This document shows, one piece after another, positions 6,266 through 62,854 of a stretch of DNA of 64,000 bases. Position numbers and translations under genes: made by a program. The notes beneath the pieces were generated by a model. It ran no database searches. It was not told where the DNA came from and saw only the letters and a program-made list of their open reading frames with translations. Every line of letters begins with the position of its first letter. Position 1 is the first letter of the stretch. The DNA comes from Candidatus Omnitrophota bacterium (GTDB lineage Bacteria; Omnitrophota; Gorgyraeia; 2-01-FULL-45-10): assembly GCA_903843285.1 (NCBI GenBank), contig CAIMPC010000016.1, positions 1,075-65,074 on the forward strand, in the 5' to 3' direction.

Positions 6266-6343
6266 ACTTAGATTCTTCGGTCGGCCGATGGCCTACCCCA
6301 GAATGACGGAAGTTGTATTTCGCAACAGTCCCATAATACATGT

Positions 6344-55008: not shown

Positions 55009-56445
55009 TTATATACCCAACATCTGCTTAAGCGTTATCTGAACGTATGCGGCCGGATAGCTTATCCAGATGCCTCCAGCCAGCGAAAGGATCCCTAATA
55101 TTGCTACACTGGCCACCATTACGCGCGAGCCTTCGGCCTCTGAATGCGCCTTCTCTTCACCCATGAAGATCATGTTGAATAGTCTGAATAGATATATGAT
55201 CGTAAGGAATGCGCCAACGAGAAAGACCATAGCTATCCATACGTTTTGATTAAATGCGCCTGACATTACCATATATTTAGAGAAGAACCCTCCGAACGGG
55301 GGTACACCCATTACCGACAATGCACAGAACAGGAACGAGATGGCGGTTATTGGCATAGAGGCTAATAGCCCCCCCATTTTAGTAATGTCTTTAGTGCGTG
55401 TTCCGTGCTCTATTATTCCGGCACACAGAAAAAGTCCGCCTTTTGCTATGCCATGCATTAATATATATAGGAGGGCGCCCGCTATACCTATGTTACCTCC
55501 AACAGCAAGACCGAGGAATATAAAAGCTATCTGACTGATGGTCGAATACGCTATTATTCTCTTCATGTCGGTTTCGATTAATGCGGCGCCTGCAGAGATT
55601 AGCGCGCTGGCGGAGGCAATGATCGGTACGACCGTGTGCCATATAGCGGCTATTGGAAGCGTCATGACGAAAAGCCTGGCAAATACATAAACTCCTATTT
55701 TTACCAGGACGGCGGCGTGAAGCAGTGCTGTCACGGGCGATGGCGCAACGCCGGCATCGGGTAGCCACGTATGAAACGGAAGAGTTGCCGACTTCGAAAG
55801 TATCCCCAGCAGTATAAGGAGGACTATCCAGTTGGATATCGGGTTTACTCCGAAATATCCCTTTATGACGGCCAGATCGAATGATCCGGTCTCGGCATAT
55901 AGCAATATGAAGCCAAATAACATTGCCAGGGCGCCAAAGATAGTAACCATAAACGCTTTATCAGCCTTAATAACATGCTGTTTCTCCCTGAAAAAGCCTA
56001 TAAGGCGCCAGCTTGCTATAGCGGTTATCTCCCAGAATATATATAGAAGGATTAGATTTGAGGAGAAGACGAGTCCCATCATCGCGCCTATGAATAAGAC
56101 TACCATCGTATAGTATTCATTTCGATTGGGATAATGACTTATATATCCGAAAGAATACATCGTGATGATGACGCTAATAAACGATGAGACTATTGCCATG
56201 AAGACGGATAAAGGATCTGCAGTTAATACGAAGTTAAATCCGAGCGGACCGGCTAAGGCTACGGTTATCGTCTGTCCGGACAATACCGTAGGCACAAGCA
56301 TAGCCGAGGCCACAAGCGATGCTAATACGAATATTAGCGCCAGCGCGTTTCTTAAGTGCTCGGAAATCCTCCCTATAGCGGGCAGTGTGAATGCGCCCAT
56401 TACGGGCACAAAGACTGCAGCTAATAGCAGTCCACTATTATTCAT
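55009..56445 (-). CDS. Antiporter-like subunit (NuoM/MrpD family)
   Basis: 478 aa. Its ATG overlaps the hppA stop by 8 nt (CATGAATAA). Confidence 0.75.
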   Translation of the reverse strand: MNNSGLLLAAVFVPVMGAFTLPAIGRISEHLRNALALIFVLASLVASAMLVPTVLSGQTITVALAGPLGFNFVLTADPLSVFMAIVSSFISVIITMYSFGYISHYPNRNEYYTMVVLFIGAMMGLVFSSNLILLYIFWEITAIASWRLIGFFREKQHVIKADKAFMVTIFGALAMLFGFILLYAETGSFDLAVIKGYFGVNPISNWIVLLILLGILSKSATLPFHTWLPDAGVAPSPVTALLHAAVLVKIGVYVFARLFVMTLPIAAIWHTVVPIIASASALISAGAALIETDMKRIIAYSTISQIAFIFLGLAVGGNIGIAGALLYILMHGIAKGGLFLCAGIIEHGTRTKDITKMGGLLASMPITAISFLFCALSVMGVPPFGGFFSKYMVMSGAFNQNVWIAMVFLVGAFLTIIYLFRLFNMIFMGEEKAHSEAEGSRVMVASVAILGILSLAGGIWISYPAAYVQITLKQMLGI

Positions 56446-58786
56446 GACAAGCTGTGTCTGTAGTTGATGGTGCTGCCTCGGGTACTGGTCTCTTACTCTG
56501 CCATATAGCCCATATAAGCACCAGGCAGATTAAAGAGATTACAACCCACGCCTTAAAACCAAGATGATTGTATTGAACTACTATAGGCGCAATAATAACC
56601 GATACCAGATTAACTACCTTAATCATCGGATTAAGCGCAGGACCCGCAGTATCTTTAAGAGGGTCTCCGACCGTGTCACCTACGACGCCTGCCTTATGCC
56701 TCTCGGAACCCTTGCCGGTGTTAAGACAAACATCCTTAACCTCATCCTCGATTGTTTTCTTACAGTTATCCCAGGCGCCGCCTGCGTTCGACATGAATAC
56801 GGCTAAAAGCTGCCCTGAAAGTATTATTCCGGCCAGGAATCCGCCGAGGGCTTCTACCTGCAATACTGTACCTACCAATATCGGTGTTACTATGCAAATT
56901 ATAGCCAGACTTATCAGCTCTTTCTGAGCCGCTACAGTCGAAATGGCAACAGCCTGCCTATAGTCCGGCTTTACCTTACCTTCCAGCACACCCAATTTAA
57001 ACTGTCTTCTCACCTCTTCTACTATCAGCGCTGCAGCGCGGCTGACAGCCTGGATAGAGAACGCTGAGAATAACCATGGAAGCGCGCCCCCTATAAGCAT
57101 TCCTATAAATACCTGGGGCACTGAGACCCTTATACCTATCGATGATAATCTTTCCGCAAGAGGGACCCCCATTGCCATCTGAACTCTGCTCACATCGACC
57201 ATGTATGATCCAAATAGCGCTACGGCGGCTATGACAGCCGATCCTATCGCGACACCTTTAGTAATGGCTTTAGTCGTGTTCCCCACACCATCGAGATCGG
57301 CCATTATTCGTCTGGCATCGAGCGTCTCTTTGTCGGTCTGACCGTGCCATGCCATCTCGCCTATTCCATTTGCATTGTCGGCTATCGGTCCGAATGAATC
57401 CATGGCTACGTTATTGCCCGTAAGCGTTAGCATACCTATTCCCGTCATTGCTACTCCATAGAGTATATATGCTATTCTCTCAGTGCCTCCAACACCGGGC
57501 ATCGTCCCAAATATCATAATTGAACTGAATATCGTGGCCGATATCAATAATATGGACCATACCGATGATTCATAACCGACCGCTATTCCGGATAATATAG
57601 TGGTTGCGGCGCCGGTTTTTGTAGATTTTCGTATTTCTCTGACAGGCGCGCCTTCAGTTCCGGTAAAATATTCAGTGAGCCTGTCGATCATGATAGCTAA
57701 CAATACTCCGACTGCGGTAGCCAAAAATGGCCTCCACCAGCCGCCCGGCACCTTATTCATATACAGGAAGGCAAGAATACCGAATAAGACGACAGAGATC
57801 GCGGCCGACGTCAGGAACCCCTTGAATATGGCCTTCATTGCGTTTCCCTTTTTCTCGTTAGGGTCGCTTTTAACGGCATACGTACCTACGATTGAACAGA
57901 GCACGCCTATTCCGCGAACGAGTAGCGGATAGACTATCCACTCAAGCCTATGGGTTATATGGTATAACGCAAGACCTAGTATTAGCCCCGCAACGATAGT
58001 GACCTCGTATGATTCAAATATGTCAGCTGCCATTCCGGCGCAATCACCAACATTGTCACCGACCAGATCTGCTACGACTGCGGGGTTGCGCGGATCATCT
58101 TCAGGTATGTTATGCTCTACTTTTCCTACCAGATCCGCTCCTACGTCTGCGGCCTTTGTATAGATGCCTCCACCGACTCTCATAAAGAGCGCCAAAAGAG
58201 TTCCACCGAAGCCAAATCCTAACAGCGCATCCGGAGCGGCAATCCCGAATATAATAAATATTATCGTGCCGCCGAATAGGCCCAAGCCATCGGTCAGCAT
58301 ACCCGTTACGGTGCCGGCCCTATAAGCGATCCTGAGAGCATCCGCAAAAGACTTTTTTGCAGCCTGAGCCACGCGTACGTTGGCCTGAACTGCCATGCGC
58401 ATGCCAAGCTGTCCTACTAATAGGGAGAATATAGCGCCCATGATGAAGGCAAGCGCTCTGCCTATACCGATTATGAAACGGACTTGCGATTCGGACTGTC
58501 CGGCAAACCTCTGCATGGCTTCCACAGACGGAGGTACCACATAGACTGAGAGGAAGAGCGCAAACGTAAGTACACCTATAAGGGGCAGGATAGTGACTAA
58601 CTGTTTTTTTAAATATGTGTCGGCGCCCTCGCGGATCGCATTCCATACCTCTATCATCTTTGGAGAACCTTTATCCTCGGCAAGTATCTCTTTACGTAAG
58701 AAAAGCGCGTAGAGTAACCCAATGACTGATATCCCGAGAACGCCCCAAATTGCAAACTGTTCAAATACCGTAAGTCCGTAAACCAC
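56438..58786 (-). CDS. hppA: Membrane-bound H+-translocating pyrophosphatase, K+-independent type
   Basis: 782 aa, 16 TM helices. DVGADLVGKVE, DNVGDCAGMAAD and VGNTTKAITKG motifs. The Lys in GNTTKA is the established determinant of K+ independence. GTG start with a GGGGGG SD. Confidence 0.9.
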   Translation of the reverse strand: MVYGLTVFEQFAIWGVLGISVIGLLYALFLRKEILAEDKGSPKMIEVWNAIREGADTYLKKQLVTILPLIGVLTFALFLSVYVVPPSVEAMQRFAGQSESQVRFIIGIGRALAFIMGAIFSLLVGQLGMRMAVQANVRVAQAAKKSFADALRIAYRAGTVTGMLTDGLGLFGGTIIFIIFGIAAPDALLGFGFGGTLLALFMRVGGGIYTKAADVGADLVGKVEHNIPEDDPRNPAVVADLVGDNVGDCAGMAADIFESYEVTIVAGLILGLALYHITHRLEWIVYPLLVRGIGVLCSIVGTYAVKSDPNEKKGNAMKAIFKGFLTSAAISVVLFGILAFLYMNKVPGGWWRPFLATAVGVLLAIMIDRLTEYFTGTEGAPVREIRKSTKTGAATTILSGIAVGYESSVWSILLISATIFSSIMIFGTMPGVGGTERIAYILYGVAMTGIGMLTLTGNNVAMDSFGPIADNANGIGEMAWHGQTDKETLDARRIMADLDGVGNTTKAITKGVAIGSAVIAAVALFGSYMVDVSRVQMAMGVPLAERLSSIGIRVSVPQVFIGMLIGGALPWLFSAFSIQAVSRAAALIVEEVRRQFKLGVLEGKVKPDYRQAVAISTVAAQKELISLAIICIVTPILVGTVLQVEALGGFLAGIILSGQLLAVFMSNAGGAWDNCKKTIEDEVKDVCLNTGKGSERHKAGVVGDTVGDPLKDTAGPALNPMIKVVNLVSVIIAPIVVQYNHLGFKAWVVISLICLVLIWAIWQSKRPVPEAAPSTTDTACHE

Positions 58787-58804
58787 TTTATCCCCCCATT
58801 TTTT

Positions 58805-58846
58805 ATAATAAAAAAACAGCCCTGCCTCATTGTTGCGAGGCGGGCT
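58805..58846 (-). terminator. Intrinsic terminator / attenuator hairpin about 20 nt upstream of the hppA start codon
   Basis: On the minus-strand RNA, GCCCGCCUC-gcaacaau-GAGGCAGGGC forms a 9-bp stem with one bulge, followed by UGUUUUUUUAUUAU. The complementary strand has the A tract before the stem, so the element is strand-specific. Confidence 0.5.
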
Positions 58847-59251
58847 TCATCGTCCTAATGCTTTACTTATAAACCTCATTCAACTTTAAAACAAAGACCC
58901 ATATATTTAAAGAACACTGTAAAATCATAGCAAACTATTAAGGCTATTTCAATAAAAATCTTACGCCAAGATGGGAATGGGAAGATACATCGTACCCCCA
59001 CCCTTCTTTGCGCTACCAGAGTCCAAGAGCGATCACCTCTTAAGGTCACCGGTGCGCAAAAAGCCGCTTTCTCCAGGGGCCCGTGAGACTCGGGTCGAGC
59101 CAATGTCCCGTACCTGAGCGATGATGGTGAGTGATTTATGTGTGTGGCGAAGTGTGGGCGGGTGAAGGTTATTGGCGAGGGGAGATTTGGATTACGTGTT
59201 ATGACTTACTGGGGTGGCTCCGAGAGAAACGTCTAAAATACTTCTATCTTG

Positions 59252-59284
59252 AAGGGTGGCACCTGTGAGCATGGCACTTATTTA
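59252..59284. repeat. 33-nt conserved motif, copy 1 (gaagggtggcaCCTGTGAGCATGGCACTtattt), in the hppA leader
   Basis: 28/33 identical to copy 2, in direct orientation, with a 17-nt perfect core. Confidence 0.7.
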
Positions 59285-59301
59285 TACAATCACGGTATTC
59301 T

Positions 59302-60159
59302 CTAATTGATCGCGACGATAATCCACGAGTGCGTATTATGCAATAAAGAGGTATTAATTTCCAAACCCAAAATATTAAAAGCACCCGGGAGTACCCCTTT
59401 TTTAGTCTCTGGGCTTACCCCTTTAGGGAGCACCATTTCATCAAAGCTTAGGTTCTGCGAAACTATTACACCGACATTGTTGGATGATAGTCGTTCATTC
59501 CATAACTTTTTATTATTCGAGTAAGGAACTAACGCATTCTCGAAAATGCAGAATTTATTAAAATTATTGGTTAAAAGAGACCTGATTTCATTATAGGAAA
59601 AACCGTGATTATCTAGCATTTCCGTATTGGGCGTTCCTATAATGATAATGCCACCTTCTTTTGTGACCCTCTTCAATTCTTTAATAGCGCAGTCTTCTTT
59701 TTGATACTCCTTGATGTGCTCTAACACTTCGCTGCATATAGTCACATCGAAATAATGACTTTCGTAGCTTTTCAAATCCGTTATGCCCTGGATGCTAAAT
59801 TCTGCATACTTACCATATCTGGCTTGCGCAAATTCTATGCTTGGCTTTGATATGTCTGCGCCATATACAAGTGCAGCATTTGATTCTTTGATAATCTGGC
59901 ATCCGTATCCTGAGCCGCATCCTATATCAGACACAACTTTGTTTTTTACAAACTGTGCAGCAAACTTATAGAATTTACAATGATTGGTAAAATTTATAAT
60001 ATCATCCTTAGTTGCTTTCTTATGTCTGCCATATTTATCAAAATTTATACCATCCGGATACACCCTGATGAAGTCCTCATAATAATAAGTGTGATTCTTC
60101 CGGCTTATGTAATGCAATATTGAATCCCGTAGCTTATTTATTACTTTCTTAATTTTCAT
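59302..60159 (-). CDS. Class I SAM-dependent methyltransferase
   Basis: 285 aa. Motif I DIGCGSGYG, motif post-I and acidic residues. Confidence 0.65.
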   Translation of the reverse strand: MKIKKVINKLRDSILHYISRKNHTYYYEDFIRVYPDGINFDKYGRHKKATKDDIINFTNHCKFYKFAAQFVKNKVVSDIGCGSGYGCQIIKESNAALVYGADISKPSIEFAQARYGKYAEFSIQGITDLKSYESHYFDVTICSEVLEHIKEYQKEDCAIKELKRVTKEGGIIIIGTPNTEMLDNHGFSYNEIRSLLTNNFNKFCIFENALVPYSNNKKLWNERLSSNNVGVIVSQNLSFDEMVLPKGVSPETKKGVLPGAFNILGLEINTSLLHNTHSWIIVAIN

Positions 60160-60175
60160 AACCCGCTATTCCTAC

Positions 60176-60865
60176 TTATGCTTTGTAGACTAGCAATGCC
60201 TTGCGGCGAGGACAATATCTGTTTTCGAGAAAATAGATATCCTGATATAGGCGTGAAATATTTGCTTTATCTCCGATCATTGCAAGTACCCAAAACATAA
60301 GATTGTCTAAATTGACCTCTTTGATCGTCTTGAGCGCGCTGACTTGACTACACTTTGTCAGCATAGTTCGTATATGATCGAAATCGACCAACCCGTGTTC
60401 GCAATGATCTTTTATGTAACCGCTTGTGGGCAGATACTGTAGTACCAGAGCCTCGGCACGTCTATTTTCTTCGGTATCAATAGGCGCAATGATAAATACT
60501 GCTGTCTTTGCAAGTCGTATCAACTCGTTAACGACATCGTCGCGCATAACTCGAGGAATATGTTCGAGGGTATCGATACAACAAACTATATCGAATGATC
60601 TATCGTCGAGAGGAATCTTGTGAGCACTCGCTGTAATATCGGCATCACCGGATACATTGAGCGTCGTAACGTTTTCGATACCAAACTGTTTAAGAATGTT
60701 ATTAGATTTAATCCCGCCGACATCAAGGACACTACATCCATGAATACCCAGTGCCTTTATCTCCTGCGCGATTAGATTAACGCGGTTATAGTACTCCCAG
60801 TAATGCCCCTCCGGCTTTTTCTCTTTACCGAATAATTTTCTTAACTTTTTCCTTAAGGATGCCAT
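60176..60865 (-). CDS. Class I SAM-dependent methyltransferase
   Basis: 229 aa. VLDVGG glycine-rich motif I. Confidence 0.55.
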   Translation of the reverse strand: MASLRKKLRKLFGKEKKPEGHYWEYYNRVNLIAQEIKALGIHGCSVLDVGGIKSNNILKQFGIENVTTLNVSGDADITASAHKIPLDDRSFDIVCCIDTLEHIPRVMRDDVVNELIRLAKTAVFIIAPIDTEENRRAEALVLQYLPTSGYIKDHCEHGLVDFDHIRTMLTKCSQVSALKTIKEVNLDNLMFWVLAMIGDKANISRLYQDIYFLENRYCPRRKALLVYKA

Positions 60866-60868
60866 ACG

Positions 60869-61825
60869 TTACCTCCAGCTCATAGGTGTTTTTATACAAG
60901 ACTCACATATTGGGGATTTTATTTTAAGGACGTCCCTGATCCTATGGTTAAGTATACTCCCCATAAAATAATTTGATCCATAGACGCCACAACAGCGCAC
61001 CAGATCTCCATTAAAACTAACCACAATAATGCTTCTTCGGTATTGACACTTATCTGCCCGTTTCGCAGTCTTCATCGCTGCCAATTCACGATTAATATCA
61101 ATGAACTGGCTGTAATGTTTTAACATTCGATCTTTTTGCTGATGAAATAGTATATTTTCTTCAACGCTTGAAATATACATTGGGAGTAGCGTAAAAGAGA
61201 GCCTATGGTTTGCGCAGAATTGCTTGACCTCGATCGCTTCATTTTTATTATAAATGAGGTCGTGAAATCCTATACCGATCTCGACATCTTTAAGATTTCG
61301 CTTACTCTTAATACGTGCAAGTTTTATAATATTTTCAAGCACGTCCTTAATGCTCCCGCCAATATGGTTTTTGGAATACGTTTCTTGTTTCATACCAGAA
61401 ATCGATACTCTGATGCGGCTAACGCCTGACTGTAGTAACTCATCCGGATTTATAAGACAGGTGAGATTGCTGCTTATACCGATTGAACCGGCTCTCCCCA
61501 TGTATTTTGGCGACCATTCCTTCTTTGCATATCTAATCATTTTTGGTAAGTCGGGGTTCAAAAGCGGCTCTCCCCAATTTCCAAATTCAAGCTCTCGGAT
61601 CCCCACCTGTTCTTTCTTAAATTTATCGATAATCTTTTTGAAAATATCGAATGACATTAAACCTTTTGCTTCATTCTTTAAACCACTCACCCCACCCCGA
61701 GGACAAAGAGCGCATCGCAAGTTACAATGCGAAACGTCCACGAGTAGTTTTAGCTCCTCACGGTGGCATAATCGTTTTAACCTATATATATGTTTCTGTA
61801 TCTTTAGCATAGATATTAAATCCAT
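60869..61825 (-). CDS. Radical SAM protein with a Cys-rich C-terminal (SPASM/twitch-like) region
   Basis: CNLRCALC (Cx3Cx2C). C-terminal CCGVYGS...CESC. The start is set at MDLISML (61825). The longer ORF to 61906 would translate through the repeated motif. Confidence 0.5.
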   Translation of the reverse strand: MDLISMLKIQKHIYRLKRLCHREELKLLVDVSHCNLRCALCPRGGVSGLKNEAKGLMSFDIFKKIIDKFKKEQVGIRELEFGNWGEPLLNPDLPKMIRYAKKEWSPKYMGRAGSIGISSNLTCLINPDELLQSGVSRIRVSISGMKQETYSKNHIGGSIKDVLENIIKLARIKSKRNLKDVEIGIGFHDLIYNKNEAIEVKQFCANHRLSFTLLPMYISSVEENILFHQQKDRMLKHYSQFIDINRELAAMKTAKRADKCQYRRSIIVVSFNGDLVRCCGVYGSNYFMGSILNHRIRDVLKIKSPICESCIKTPMSWR

Positions 61826-61834
61826 TAATATTCT

Positions 61835-61867
61835 GGAGTGTGGTGCCTGTGAGCATGGCACTGATTT
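61835..61867. repeat. 33-nt conserved motif, copy 2 (ggagtgtggtgCCTGTGAGCATGGCACTgattt)
   Basis: Same orientation as copy 1. Contains the inverted repeat GTGCC-N9-GGCAC. Confidence 0.7.
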
Positions 61868-61909
61868 CTGCTTACCTATAGACTTAAATAGGTAGGATTG
61901 TGTCATTAA

Positions 61910-62854
61910 TTAAATTAGGCGAACGGTAACTTTGCCATTTTTGATATTGTAAACTACACCGTCGACAGCAACTACCTGCCCCTTATCTATTTCTCTGAGT
62001 CTTGATTCTGCGGTATCGTAACCGGCAGTGCTTCCTGGATATTTGTATTTTTTAATTACTTCATTATAAATTGCTTTTGCTTTTTCAATATCACCTTTTG
62101 CAAGATAAGTATCGCCAATAAATATTTCTGCATAACATTCTGCGATAGAAAATGGAAACTCTTTAGCCATTTTCTGGTATGTCTCAACAGCTTTATCATA
62201 ATCTTTGAATATAATCTTATACATCTTACCTATAGATTGGAATGTCTCGTTAAAAAGACGATATTCGTCGTGGTCATCCAAAATCTTCAAATCAGGTAAA
62301 TAGTCTAATATTTTCAAATATTCATCTAATTGTTTTTTATATTCTTTCTTATCGCGATAGCATGCCGCGATTGCCCTCTGAACCCTGATGACATACGCAT
62401 ACTCTTCTATTTTTATTCTTTCTCTTGAGACGCCAGCCTTTTCGGGATATTCCTTATTAAAATACTTGCGCTTAAATCCCTCGAGTTCGTTTCTATAAGC
62501 ATTTAGCGCCTTATCATATTTTTGCAGATACCAATAAGAATCTCCCAGCCCTCGCCATACATCGGCTTCCTCTACTGCTCTTGCTCCATCCATTCTGAAC
62601 AAACGCTCGTAGCTTTTTGCCGCACGCGTCCATGCTGGTTTTTTAAATATGAGCCTTGAAAATTCTCCAACAATTATGTTCGGCGCATAAAAAAATATAG
62701 CCTCTCCGGCATTTGAGGCGGCATCATATTGCTCATTAGCATATTTCTTTTGCTCGTCATAGGTCGCAAACCTTGGTGTGTATATTAAACTAACCATGAA
62801 TACGCTTATGACGGTCGCCAGAAGTGCTACTATAGTTATAAGTATTTTCTTCAT
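61910..62854 (-). CDS. TPR-repeat protein with an N-terminal signal/anchor
   Basis: 314 aa. N-terminal hydrophobic segment, then multiple 34-aa repeats with W-LG-Y / A-F-A-P patterning. Confidence 0.55.
   Translation of the reverse strand: MKKILITIVALLATVISVFMVSLIYTPRFATYDEQKKYANEQYDAASNAGEAIFFYAPNIIVGEFSRLIFKKPAWTRAAKSYERLFRMDGARAVEEADVWRGLGDSYWYLQKYDKALNAYRNELEGFKRKYFNKEYPEKAGVSRERIKIEEYAYVIRVQRAIAACYRDKKEYKKQLDEYLKILDYLPDLKILDDHDEYRLFNETFQSIGKMYKIIFKDYDKAVETYQKMAKEFPFSIAECYAEIFIGDTYLAKGDIEKAKAIYNEVIKKYKYPGSTAGYDTAESRLREIDKGQVVAVDGVVYNIKNGKVTVRLI

Follow-up and report, generated by a model that had tools for sequence, protein, structure and literature searches.

Several kinds of short sequence are known to recur between bacterial genes. 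REPs are present in tens to hundreds of copies and form stable palindromes, often arranged as inverted doublets, with a RAYT transposase alongside. IS200/IS605-type elements end in similar hairpin-forming subterminal sequences that lie in direct rather than inverted orientation, a possible resemblance to the motif described here. Putative mobile promoters (PMPs) are stretches of highly similar DNA located upstream of unrelated genes (PMC3575422; Matus-Garcia, Nijveen & van Passel 2012). Here, a pair of intergenic repeats was analysed in 64 kb of Omnitrophota DNA (this whole stretch is referred to as the window) and compared with such systems.

A repeat search over the window identified a direct repeat of 39 nt, at 59245-59283 and 61829-61867, with 32 of 39 positions identical (82%) and the copies 2584 nt apart. 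Both contain the same 17-nt core, which occurs exactly twice in the window; allowing up to 3 mismatches produced no third match there. Two core matches were obtained in 0 of 100 shuffles, and a binomial estimate predicts about 4e-4 direct pairs of such quality by chance per 64 kb. The two repeats are true copies of a rare intergenic sequence of about 40 bases. The sequence-only reading that preceded this work had described a direct repeat with a shared identical core, about 2.6 kb apart; this is borne out, and the repeat extends to 39 nt. Over the 33 nt delimited in that reading the repeat holds, but we count 27 identical positions instead of 28. The dyad GTGCC-N9-GGCAC, claimed for copy 2, is found in that copy only, copy 1 reading GGCACC in place of copy 2's GGTGCC. 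The features of the locus are:

61910..62854, minus strand: TPR protein gene, upstream of copy 2 and preceded by a giant gene (>3300 aa) that runs off the window
61829..61874, minus strand: copy 2 of the module, in gene sense ..GCAGAAATCAGTGCCATGCTCACAGGCACCACACTCCAGAATA, flanked by the TPR stop codon (61910) and the radical-SAM ATG (61825)
59262-59278 (copy 1) and 61846-61862 (copy 2), plus strand: exact 17-nt core, CCTGTGAGCATGGCACT
61846..61862 (copy 2) and 59262..59278 (copy 1), minus strand: the same core in gene sense, AGTGCCATGCTCACAGG
60869..61825, minus strand: radical-SAM gene, 318 aa, Pfam PF04055
60176..60865, minus strand: methyltransferase (MTase), 229 aa, conserved partner of the radical-SAM gene
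59302..60159, minus strand: class I SAM-dependent methyltransferase, 285 aa
59245..59290, minus strand: copy 1 of the module, in gene sense ..GTATAAATAAGTGCCATGCTCACAGGTGCCACCCTTCAAGATA, beginning 19 nt past the MTase stop codon and ahead of a 290-nt spacer without recognisable gene
58955..59244, minus strand: GC-rich spacer from copy 1 to the hppA promoter
58924..58952, minus strand: sigma-70 promoter of hppA itself, TTGAAA-17-(TGc)TATGAT, conserved among relatives
58810..58848, minus strand: terminator-like hairpin and T-run in the hppA leader, conserved, immediately ahead of the hppA ribosome-binding site

Every gene at the locus is read from the minus strand. The succession runs from the giant protein gene through TPR, copy 2, radical-SAM, the two MTases and copy 1 to the spacer, the hppA promoter with its leader, and hppA. 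Copy 1 follows the MTase stop codon (59302-59304) at 17-19 nt, and about 466 nt separate it from the hppA GTG start at 58786, further downstream. If the radical-SAM protein starts at M28 of the 345-aa open reading frame, with its ATG at 61825, copy 2 ends about 10 nt ahead of that codon. The distances given in the sequence-only reading are correct. The 345-aa frame, which begins at 61906 and runs through copy 2, is probably an over-call and 61825 the start: radical-SAM homologues are 310-318 aa long and cover at most 92% of it. Copy 2 was also considered as coding sequence and rejected, the N-terminal extension being missing from homologues. The 285-aa methyltransferase was not seen beside radical-SAM orthologues elsewhere.

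The hppA promoter is situated about 290 nt downstream of copy 1, and relatives devoid of the motif still have the same promoter and terminator-containing leader. As judged from these conserved elements, the comparison shows hppA to be under the predicted control of its own promoter and attenuator, and not of the motif. Co-control of the hppA energy supercluster, as had been proposed, is thus unsupported, hppA having a promoter and leader in common with motif-less relatives. For the 290-nt spacer, both a structured RNA and a small gene were rejected (z of +0.33 and +2.27, short implausible open reading frames only, no Rfam match).

We next turn to copies outside the window. An exact-core scan of JGI metagenomes returned 83 matches, only 3 of which are homologous (contigs L123, L121 and L124). 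These are three further full copies, and the likeness of their flanks reaches well past the 17-mer used as query. On these contigs all copies are intergenic and in one orientation towards the downstream gene; counting the window, constant orientation and intergenic position are seen in 7/7 copies. The downstream genes are unrelated: a secreted protein without Pfam match in L123, a 505-aa MTase in L121 and L124 (only 25-28% identical to the window MTases), and the radical-SAM protein in the window. The module occurs singly in L123, while in L121 and L124 the 505-aa methyltransferase gene is bracketed by one full and one partial copy. In L121, the partial copy 3' of the MTase seems to face the terminator of a convergent gene and not a downstream gene.

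Rightwards, in the direction of the downstream gene, homology continues past the motif; leftwards it covers only about 10 nt. Copy 1 and L123 are 90% identical over 50 nt, and L121 and L123 74% identical over 105 nt comprising motif and leader. The genes upstream differ between L121 (TPR protein) and L124 (epimerase), yet the 1710-nt block that these two contigs have in common starts exactly at the motif: it extends from the left edge of the 5' copy to the inside of the 3' copy, after GCCAT(G). Within it, the leader has about 6 differences in about 157 positions (about 96% identity, by alignment count) versus 88% for the whole block. Differences between the two 5' copies cluster in the 7 nt just past the core, and in both contigs 5 nt (or 15 nt) are inserted between the core and a -10-like box. 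In gene sense, the module consensus is GnnwAAAAT[C/A]AGTGCCATGCTCACAGG[Y][R][Y][Y]AC[N]CT, followed by this A/T-rich -10-like box (CA(A)GAAT / TA[T/G]NA[G/A]). Other repeats are present on these contigs. A 70-nt element, R2, is duplicated in L123 (94% identity), and its first 20 nt come after the partial motif of L121. Separately, window positions 6269-6331 are 90% identical to L124 5070-5132, another interspersed repeat.

Elsewhere the motif is rare. Scanning 185,579 representative genomes with the exact core, in a set apparently without this organism's species, gave 47 single matches in unrelated taxa with unlike flanks, i.e. chance level; the same scan of viral contigs gave 0 matches. Related Omnitrophota loci totalling about 160 kb, searched with a profile, had no motif apart from L121, L123 and L124. 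At orthologous sites it was not found in the closest hppA relatives (L053-L055), radical-SAM orthologues (L139-L143, L152-L153) or TPR homologues (L144-L145). A REP present in hundreds of copies, the outcome named in the sequence-only reading as fatal to it, is not what we see in the DNA covered: there are 2 copies in the 64 kb and 0 in the 160 kb of relatives. We read the motif as specific to a narrow Omnitrophota clade, where it lies at the 5' boundary of several unrelated units. Known RNA families were also searched. The window has no Rfam 15 gathering-score match, and at relaxed thresholds nothing relevant appeared at E<=5 in 58700-62000 nor at E<=1 in L121, L123 and L124; a tRNA or tmRNA attachment site was rejected on the same absence of gathering-score matches in the window.

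The repeat itself, its recurrence, orientation and position, and the boundaries of homology are observed directly; promoter or operator activity and the role of recombination are inferred. We tentatively regard the copies as a reused 5' regulatory module, a putative promoter/operator at which units are shuffled, with a probability of about 0.4. The module would comprise a promoter region and an operator for some DNA-binding factor. On this view the radical-SAM/MTase/MTase operon would have copy 2 as its promoter region, in place of the canonical sigma-70 promoter of the orthologues, and its transcript would carry hardly any leader, or none. Two radical-SAM orthologues (L139, 83% identity; L140, 78%) have TTGAC(G/C)-17-TATTAT 6 nt ahead of the ATG, and copy 2 offers CTCACA-17-TATTAA at this position. 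Copy 1 would belong in the same way to the following unit, which is now an orphan; alternatively, it may serve as an additional, weak promoter from which transcription enters the hppA leader, with hppA presumably using its own promoter and attenuator. The bracketing would reflect adjacent units that each begin with the same module, and recombination at the common 17-25 nt may join or swap such units. The putative hexamers are:

61853-61848, minus strand: candidate -35-like CTCACA of copy 2, in the core
61830-61825, minus strand: candidate TATTAA of copy 2, its last A being the A of the ATG
59269-59264, minus strand: candidate CTCACA of copy 1
59246-59241, minus strand: candidate TAGAAG of copy 1, 17 nt from the preceding hexamer

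The pattern CTCACA-17-TA[T/G]NA[G/A] is present in 3 of the 5 full copies, the insertion breaking the 17-nt spacing in L121 and L124. Against a promoter, these candidate hexamers are weak, with a -10 box devoid of the usual final T, and the conserved contiguous non-palindromic block, at about 25 nt, exceeds a -35 element in length; against a module, the 290 nt after copy 1 contain no gene that it could drive. A consensus sigma-70 scan called neither window copy. Two other classes of site were tried and rejected. A sigma-54 promoter of the form GG-N10-GC (TGGCAC-N5-TTGC) would have TGGCAC only antisense to the genes and the GC one base too close, and the GG, lost in L124, is not conserved. A CRP/FNR-type or LexA-type palindrome was dismissed, as only a GTG-N7-CAC dyad is present. 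The earlier proposal of a shared operator is therefore plausible for the modification cassette, where it agrees with same-orientation recurrence before unrelated genes and with copy 2 at the promoter position of the orthologues, and for the cassette only.

Direct copies bracket two unrelated cassettes, radical-SAM/MTase/MTase in the window and the 505-aa MTase in L121/L124, and the motif could instead be the crossover site at which these were inserted, either by a site-specific recombinase encoded elsewhere or by Campbell-type homologous recombination of a one-copy circle, a direct repeat being left on both sides. This is close to the second proposal of the sequence-only reading, terminal repeats of an inserted three-gene cassette, which stands in part: bracketing recurs in L121/L124, and in the closest hppA relatives the place of the cassette upstream of hppA is taken by an amino-acid permease. 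Consistent with a crossover are also the L121/L124 block bounded by the left edge of the 5' copy and the interior of the 3' copy, the clustering of 5'-copy differences just after the core, and the radical-SAM/MTase pair in at least four other genomic contexts. In addition, copy 1 has a right flank that most resembles the "complete" L123 module, as expected of a resident chromosomal half. Yet the gene tables list no integrase, transposase or HUH gene within 10 kb on each side, where the neighbours are the giant protein, the TPR protein, hppA and Mrp/complex-I-like subunits, and target-site duplication is absent. Nor was an empty site seen: the five distinct contexts listed per look-up (14-17 contigs of this organism) all have the cassette with both copies. 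L123 also has the module singly, ahead of an unrelated gene, integron R'/R'' core sites are missing from the motif, and the cassette GC (37-43%) equals that of the upstream TPR and giant-gene side; a foreign-DNA signal from composition was rejected on this count. We consider insertion at a crossover site doubtful, though a serious possibility. Its more specific form, an undescribed integron-like shuffling system of the Omnitrophota without intI/attC signatures and with a recombinase encoded elsewhere, is distinctly unlikely; such a system would exchange SAM-dependent modification and envelope genes between positions at the ~40-nt junction.

Every copy is also downstream of a co-directional gene (by 2-180 nt), so a role at the 3' end is compatible with position. 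The motif might then be a REP/BIME-like mosaic intergenic repeat forming a small hairpin, as RNA or single-stranded DNA, between co-directional genes, which would act in mRNA 3'-end or intercistronic stability, or have no role, and would spread independently of its neighbours. A bulged hairpin of 7 bp, GUGCC-A-UG[CUCA]CA-GGYRY, can form in 6/6 aligned copies, with 41 of 42 cells paired, and the 3' arm varies at three positions, where the only changes are between Watson-Crick and wobble pairs; the mosaic with R2 in L123 and L121 and the other interspersed repeats of these genomes, such as that at window 6269-6331, are in keeping with this. However, the hairpin is no more stable than shuffled sequence (z -1.3 to +0.75), and the invariant 5' arm leaves no true covariation. 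The low copy number given above, the lack of a U-tract, inverted doublets or RAYT gene in view, and a conservation that is asymmetric and extends towards the downstream gene all make a REP-like element unlikely. Least probable to us is a neutral remnant of an old local duplication or rearrangement, without present function. It would accommodate the presence of only two copies in the window and the 290 nt of apparently non-functional DNA after copy 1, within which several assemblies break, but not the same 17-25 nt being exact on contigs from another sample where adjacent coding DNA is down to 88%, nor the constant orientation and intergenic position of every copy.

If the promoter/operator reading is true, the module would define a small regulon of radical-SAM and methyltransferase modification enzymes and of secreted/envelope proteins near giant-protein genes, and would be a clean example of promoter reuse before unrelated genes. 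If the motif is a recombination junction, it would offer these reduced genomes a way to swap accessory cassettes. Under either reading the radical-SAM gene model is corrected. To our knowledge, the Omnitrophota are an uncultured, possibly predatory nanobacterial phylum, and we know of no regulatory element described in them.

Among known systems, integron cassettes share with this locus co-directional accessory genes separated by a recurring junction sequence, one cassette behind different neighbours, and junction homology that ends within the repeat. Unlike integrons, there is no intI within 10 kb on each side, and the three-gene cassette apparently has its own promoter region. The motif is about 40 nt long without extended imperfect palindrome, whereas attC sites measure 57-141 nt; an attC site was rejected, with no RYYYAAC/GTTRRRY core sites and GTT in neither window copy on either strand. 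IS200/IS605 elements and their non-autonomous derivatives differ in that no tnpA/tnpB and no conserved cleavage tetranucleotide were identified here, and the passenger consists of three metabolic genes. The proteobacterial REP/BIME/REPIN elements are similar in being short intergenic repeats with hairpin potential between co-directional genes and in mosaics with other repeats, but the present motif has a low copy number, a weak hairpin and direct copies 2584 nt apart, and the gene tables, 10 kb on each side, hold no RAYT (HUH) transposase gene. The ops sequence GGCGGTAG of JUMPstart/ops elements, which recruit RfaH-type NusG paralogues, is absent from the motif; like them, it is an element of about 39 nt just upstream of envelope/modification clusters, and its non-template strand could form a small hairpin. 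The function of PMPs is usually unproven. By their threshold of >=80% over >=50 nt before non-paralogous genes, the window pair (82% over 39 nt) falls below; only copy 1 versus L123, on different contigs, reaches it, L121 versus L123 having the 74% over 105 nt given above, and copy 1 differs from PMPs in having no gene directly downstream. Like PMPs, the motif is similar non-coding DNA ahead of unrelated coding sequences, within and between genomes, with no mobile-element genes attached.

The window contains two exact matches to the 17-nt core CCTGTGAGCATGGCACT, at 59262-59278 and 61846-61862, and no third match at three or fewer mismatches anywhere in the 64 kb; two core matches were obtained in 0 of 100 shuffled sequences. 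The repeat pair extends to 39 nt (59245-59283, the hppA-side copy 1, versus 61829-61867, the radical-SAM-side copy 2), with 32 of 39 positions identical and the copies starting 2584 nt apart, and by a binomial estimate about 4e-4 direct pairs of this quality would arise by chance in a sequence of 64 kb. The repeat pair claimed in the sequence-only reading is thus confirmed, and the distances given there to the methyltransferase stop codon, hppA and the radical-SAM start are correct; the identity of its 33-nt motif, put at 28/33, is 27/33 when counted over the same positions. Every gene of the repeat region lies on the minus strand, and the features are, in gene sense:

runs off the window, minus: giant protein of more than 3300 aa, first in order
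61910-62854, minus: TPR protein, after the giant protein and before copy 2
61829-61867: copy 2, between the TPR and radical-SAM genes
60869-61825, minus: radical-SAM gene, directly after copy 2
60176-60865, minus: methyltransferase, 229 aa
59302-60159, minus: methyltransferase, 285 aa, preceding copy 1
59245-59283: copy 1, after the 285-aa methyltransferase, then a 290-nt GC-rich spacer
58787-58952, minus: hppA sigma-70 promoter and leader
56438-58786, minus: hppA, after its own promoter and leader; Mrp/complex-I-like genes next

Gene callers place the radical-SAM start at 61906 (345 aa), 3 nt past the TPR stop codon, which would make copy 2 coding. Homologues are 310-318 aa long, start at M28 (61825) and never cover the first 27 residues; we therefore take 61825 as the start and copy 2 as non-coding. 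An inverted repeat of 7-9 bp (TACCTAT-N8-ATAGGTA, 61871-61897) separates the TPR stop codon from copy 2; it has no T-run and could represent a weak hairpin at the 3' end of the TPR transcript. After a TPR homologue on another Omnitrophota contig, L145 (3360-3694), a stretch of 300 nt begins and ends with AATAGGGGACGGAGTTAACTTG, and tandem repeats of the AGCTATCAGC type accompany it; here another intergenic repeat takes the same genomic position as the motif region after the TPR gene.

When the exact core was searched in 185,579 species, one genome each, 47 single matches were found in unrelated taxa, about the chance number and none with matching flanks; viral contigs gave 0 matches. JGI metagenome contigs gave 83 matches, of which three continue far into the flanks and are true homologues: L123, whose sample also yielded one contig of the window organism, and L121 and L124, which share a different sample. 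Apart from one partial copy each in L121 and L124, a search with a profile made from the copies revealed nothing further, either in the window or across related Omnitrophota loci totalling about 160 kb. This low count argues that the motif is not a high-copy REP, the alternative of hundreds of copies raised by the sequence-only reading. The repeat is real and non-random, a member of a small family confined to a narrow lineage.

In L123, the motif lies after a terminator-like hairpin, 127 nt upstream of a gene for a secreted protein with no Pfam match. In L121 and L124, the gene that follows the motif after about 130 nt encodes a class I methyltransferase of 505 aa that carries a Trm112-like zinc ribbon and is only 25-28% identical to the window methyltransferases. 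The upstream genes differ between these two contigs (TPR protein versus epimerase), and the left edge of the motif is exactly where their common 1710-nt block (88% identity) starts. Their leaders differ at about 6 of about 157 positions (about 96% identity, counted from alignment A2), 4 of these differences falling within the 7 nt that directly follow the core. Starting at the motif, L123 and L121 remain similar over 105 nt in the direction of the gene, copy 1 matches L123 at 90% identity over 50 nt, and on the left of the motif the resemblance ends after about 10 nt. A partial second copy is located downstream of the 505-aa methyltransferase (AAAATCAGTGCCATGaTCACAGGT in L121; AAAATCAGTGCCAT in L124, with the next gene about 90 nt further on), so the motif also brackets a methyltransferase unit outside the window, as an independent case.

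Other repeats were observed in these contigs. R2 (GGGAAAAGGGGTCAGAGTCAATTTRTTGTGCCATGTYCGATTAAG...), 70 nt long, occurs twice in L123 (2306-2375 and 4110-4179, 94% identity), each time after a gene and in one case immediately preceding the motif; in L121 (4268-4287) the partial motif is followed by the first 20 nt of R2, and GTGCCATG inside R2 is the same 8-mer as in the motif core. A 63-nt sequence (GATTCTTCGGTCGGCCGATGGCCT..CAGAATGACGGAAG..) is 90% identical between window 6269-6331 and 5070-5132 of L124, which comes from another sample and where it adjoins a tRNA gene; these organisms probably have it in common as a further interspersed repeat family.

Radical-SAM orthologues on contigs L139 (83% identity) and L140 (78%) stand in different contexts, without the motif. 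In both, TTGAC(G/C)-17-TATTAT is found only 6 nt before the ATG, a distance that suggests leaderless transcripts. Copy 2 occupies the position of this promoter in the window, where CTCACA-17-TATTAA abuts the radical-SAM ATG; the equivalents are CTCACA-17-TAGAAG in copy 1 and CTCACA-17-TATAAG in L123. These hexamers are weak, the -10 is without its final T, a sigma-70 consensus scan made no call on them, and in L121 and L124 an insertion of 5 nt (15 nt in another alignment) breaks their spacing. We therefore regard promoter activity of the motif as putative. A 7-bp bulged hairpin, GUGCC-A-UG[CUCA]CA-GGYRY, is possible in 6/6 aligned copies (41/42 cells paired). Three positions of its 3' arm vary, changing only between wobble and Watson-Crick pairs, which explains why GTGCC-N9-GGCAC, noted earlier for copy 2, is formed in DNA there only. 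The 5' arm is invariant and two-sided covariation is absent, stability does not exceed that of shuffled sequence, and no Rfam family matches the motif.

The sequence-only reading had also proposed, as one of two alternatives, that the motif co-controls the hppA energy cluster. The window organism itself is placed in Candidatus Omnitrophota by the names that its hppA homologues bear. On the contigs with the closest hppA relatives (L053, L054 and L055; 87-92% protein identity), an amino-acid permease, not the TPR/radical-SAM region, lies upstream, and no motif copy was found. Like the window, these contigs have TTGAAA-17-TATGAT, a canonical sigma-70 promoter (window 58952-58924), followed by a leader of about 100 nt whose end, immediately 5' of the ribosome-binding site, is a conserved hairpin, rich in GC, with a T-run (promoter and leader: L053 9826-10000, L054 3289-3508, L055 1962-2202). 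Compensatory changes are seen at two pairs of the hairpin, and the leaders of the four Omnitrophota have a GCAGGTWGGAGC box in common; the leader matches no Rfam family and is a candidate attenuator or riboswitch for the Na+/H+ pyrophosphatase and Mrp-like operon. Because hppA has its own promoter and leader, kept in motif-free relatives, the motif is not an hppA operator in any simple sense, and co-control is not supported. Copy 1 precedes the hppA promoter by about 290 nt, and the spacer between the two is not enriched in RNA structure (z = +0.33 and +2.27), contains no ORF that convinces and matches no Rfam family. Several independent assemblies break inside it: same-organism contigs from two samples (ERR4195937 and ERZ18625568) and contig L003 (SRR5754711) break off at 59155 or 59130, or resume at 59001 or 58945, indicating that the spacer is repeated elsewhere or polymorphic in the population.

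We tentatively favour, at a probability of about 0.4, a reused 5' regulatory module, i.e. a promoter region plus putative operator placed before unrelated units, because homology extends asymmetrically towards the downstream gene, motif orientation is constant and the radical-SAM start has the motif in place of a canonical promoter. If recombination at the motif had linked or swapped units, the recurring bracket and the homology-block boundaries at or inside motif copies would be equally expected; this explanation is compatible with a regulatory module, and we consider it less likely. A dedicated recombination system is opposed by the absence of any recombinase within 10 kb on either side, of an empty-site allele among the contexts shown for 14-17 same-organism contigs, and of a target duplication. 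Both earlier hypotheses thus survive in part: the regulatory site without hppA, and the cassette with terminal repeats in its recurring bracket but with neither recombinase nor empty site.

Less probable still is a REP/BIME-like hairpin element, which would suit the mosaic association with R2 and the location of each copy downstream of a co-directional gene; against it, the copies are few and their hairpin is weak. The repeat is of a kind already known, that of reused intergenic regulatory or junction sequences, and the reused regulatory module corresponds to what has been described in the literature as putative mobile promoters (PMC3575422).
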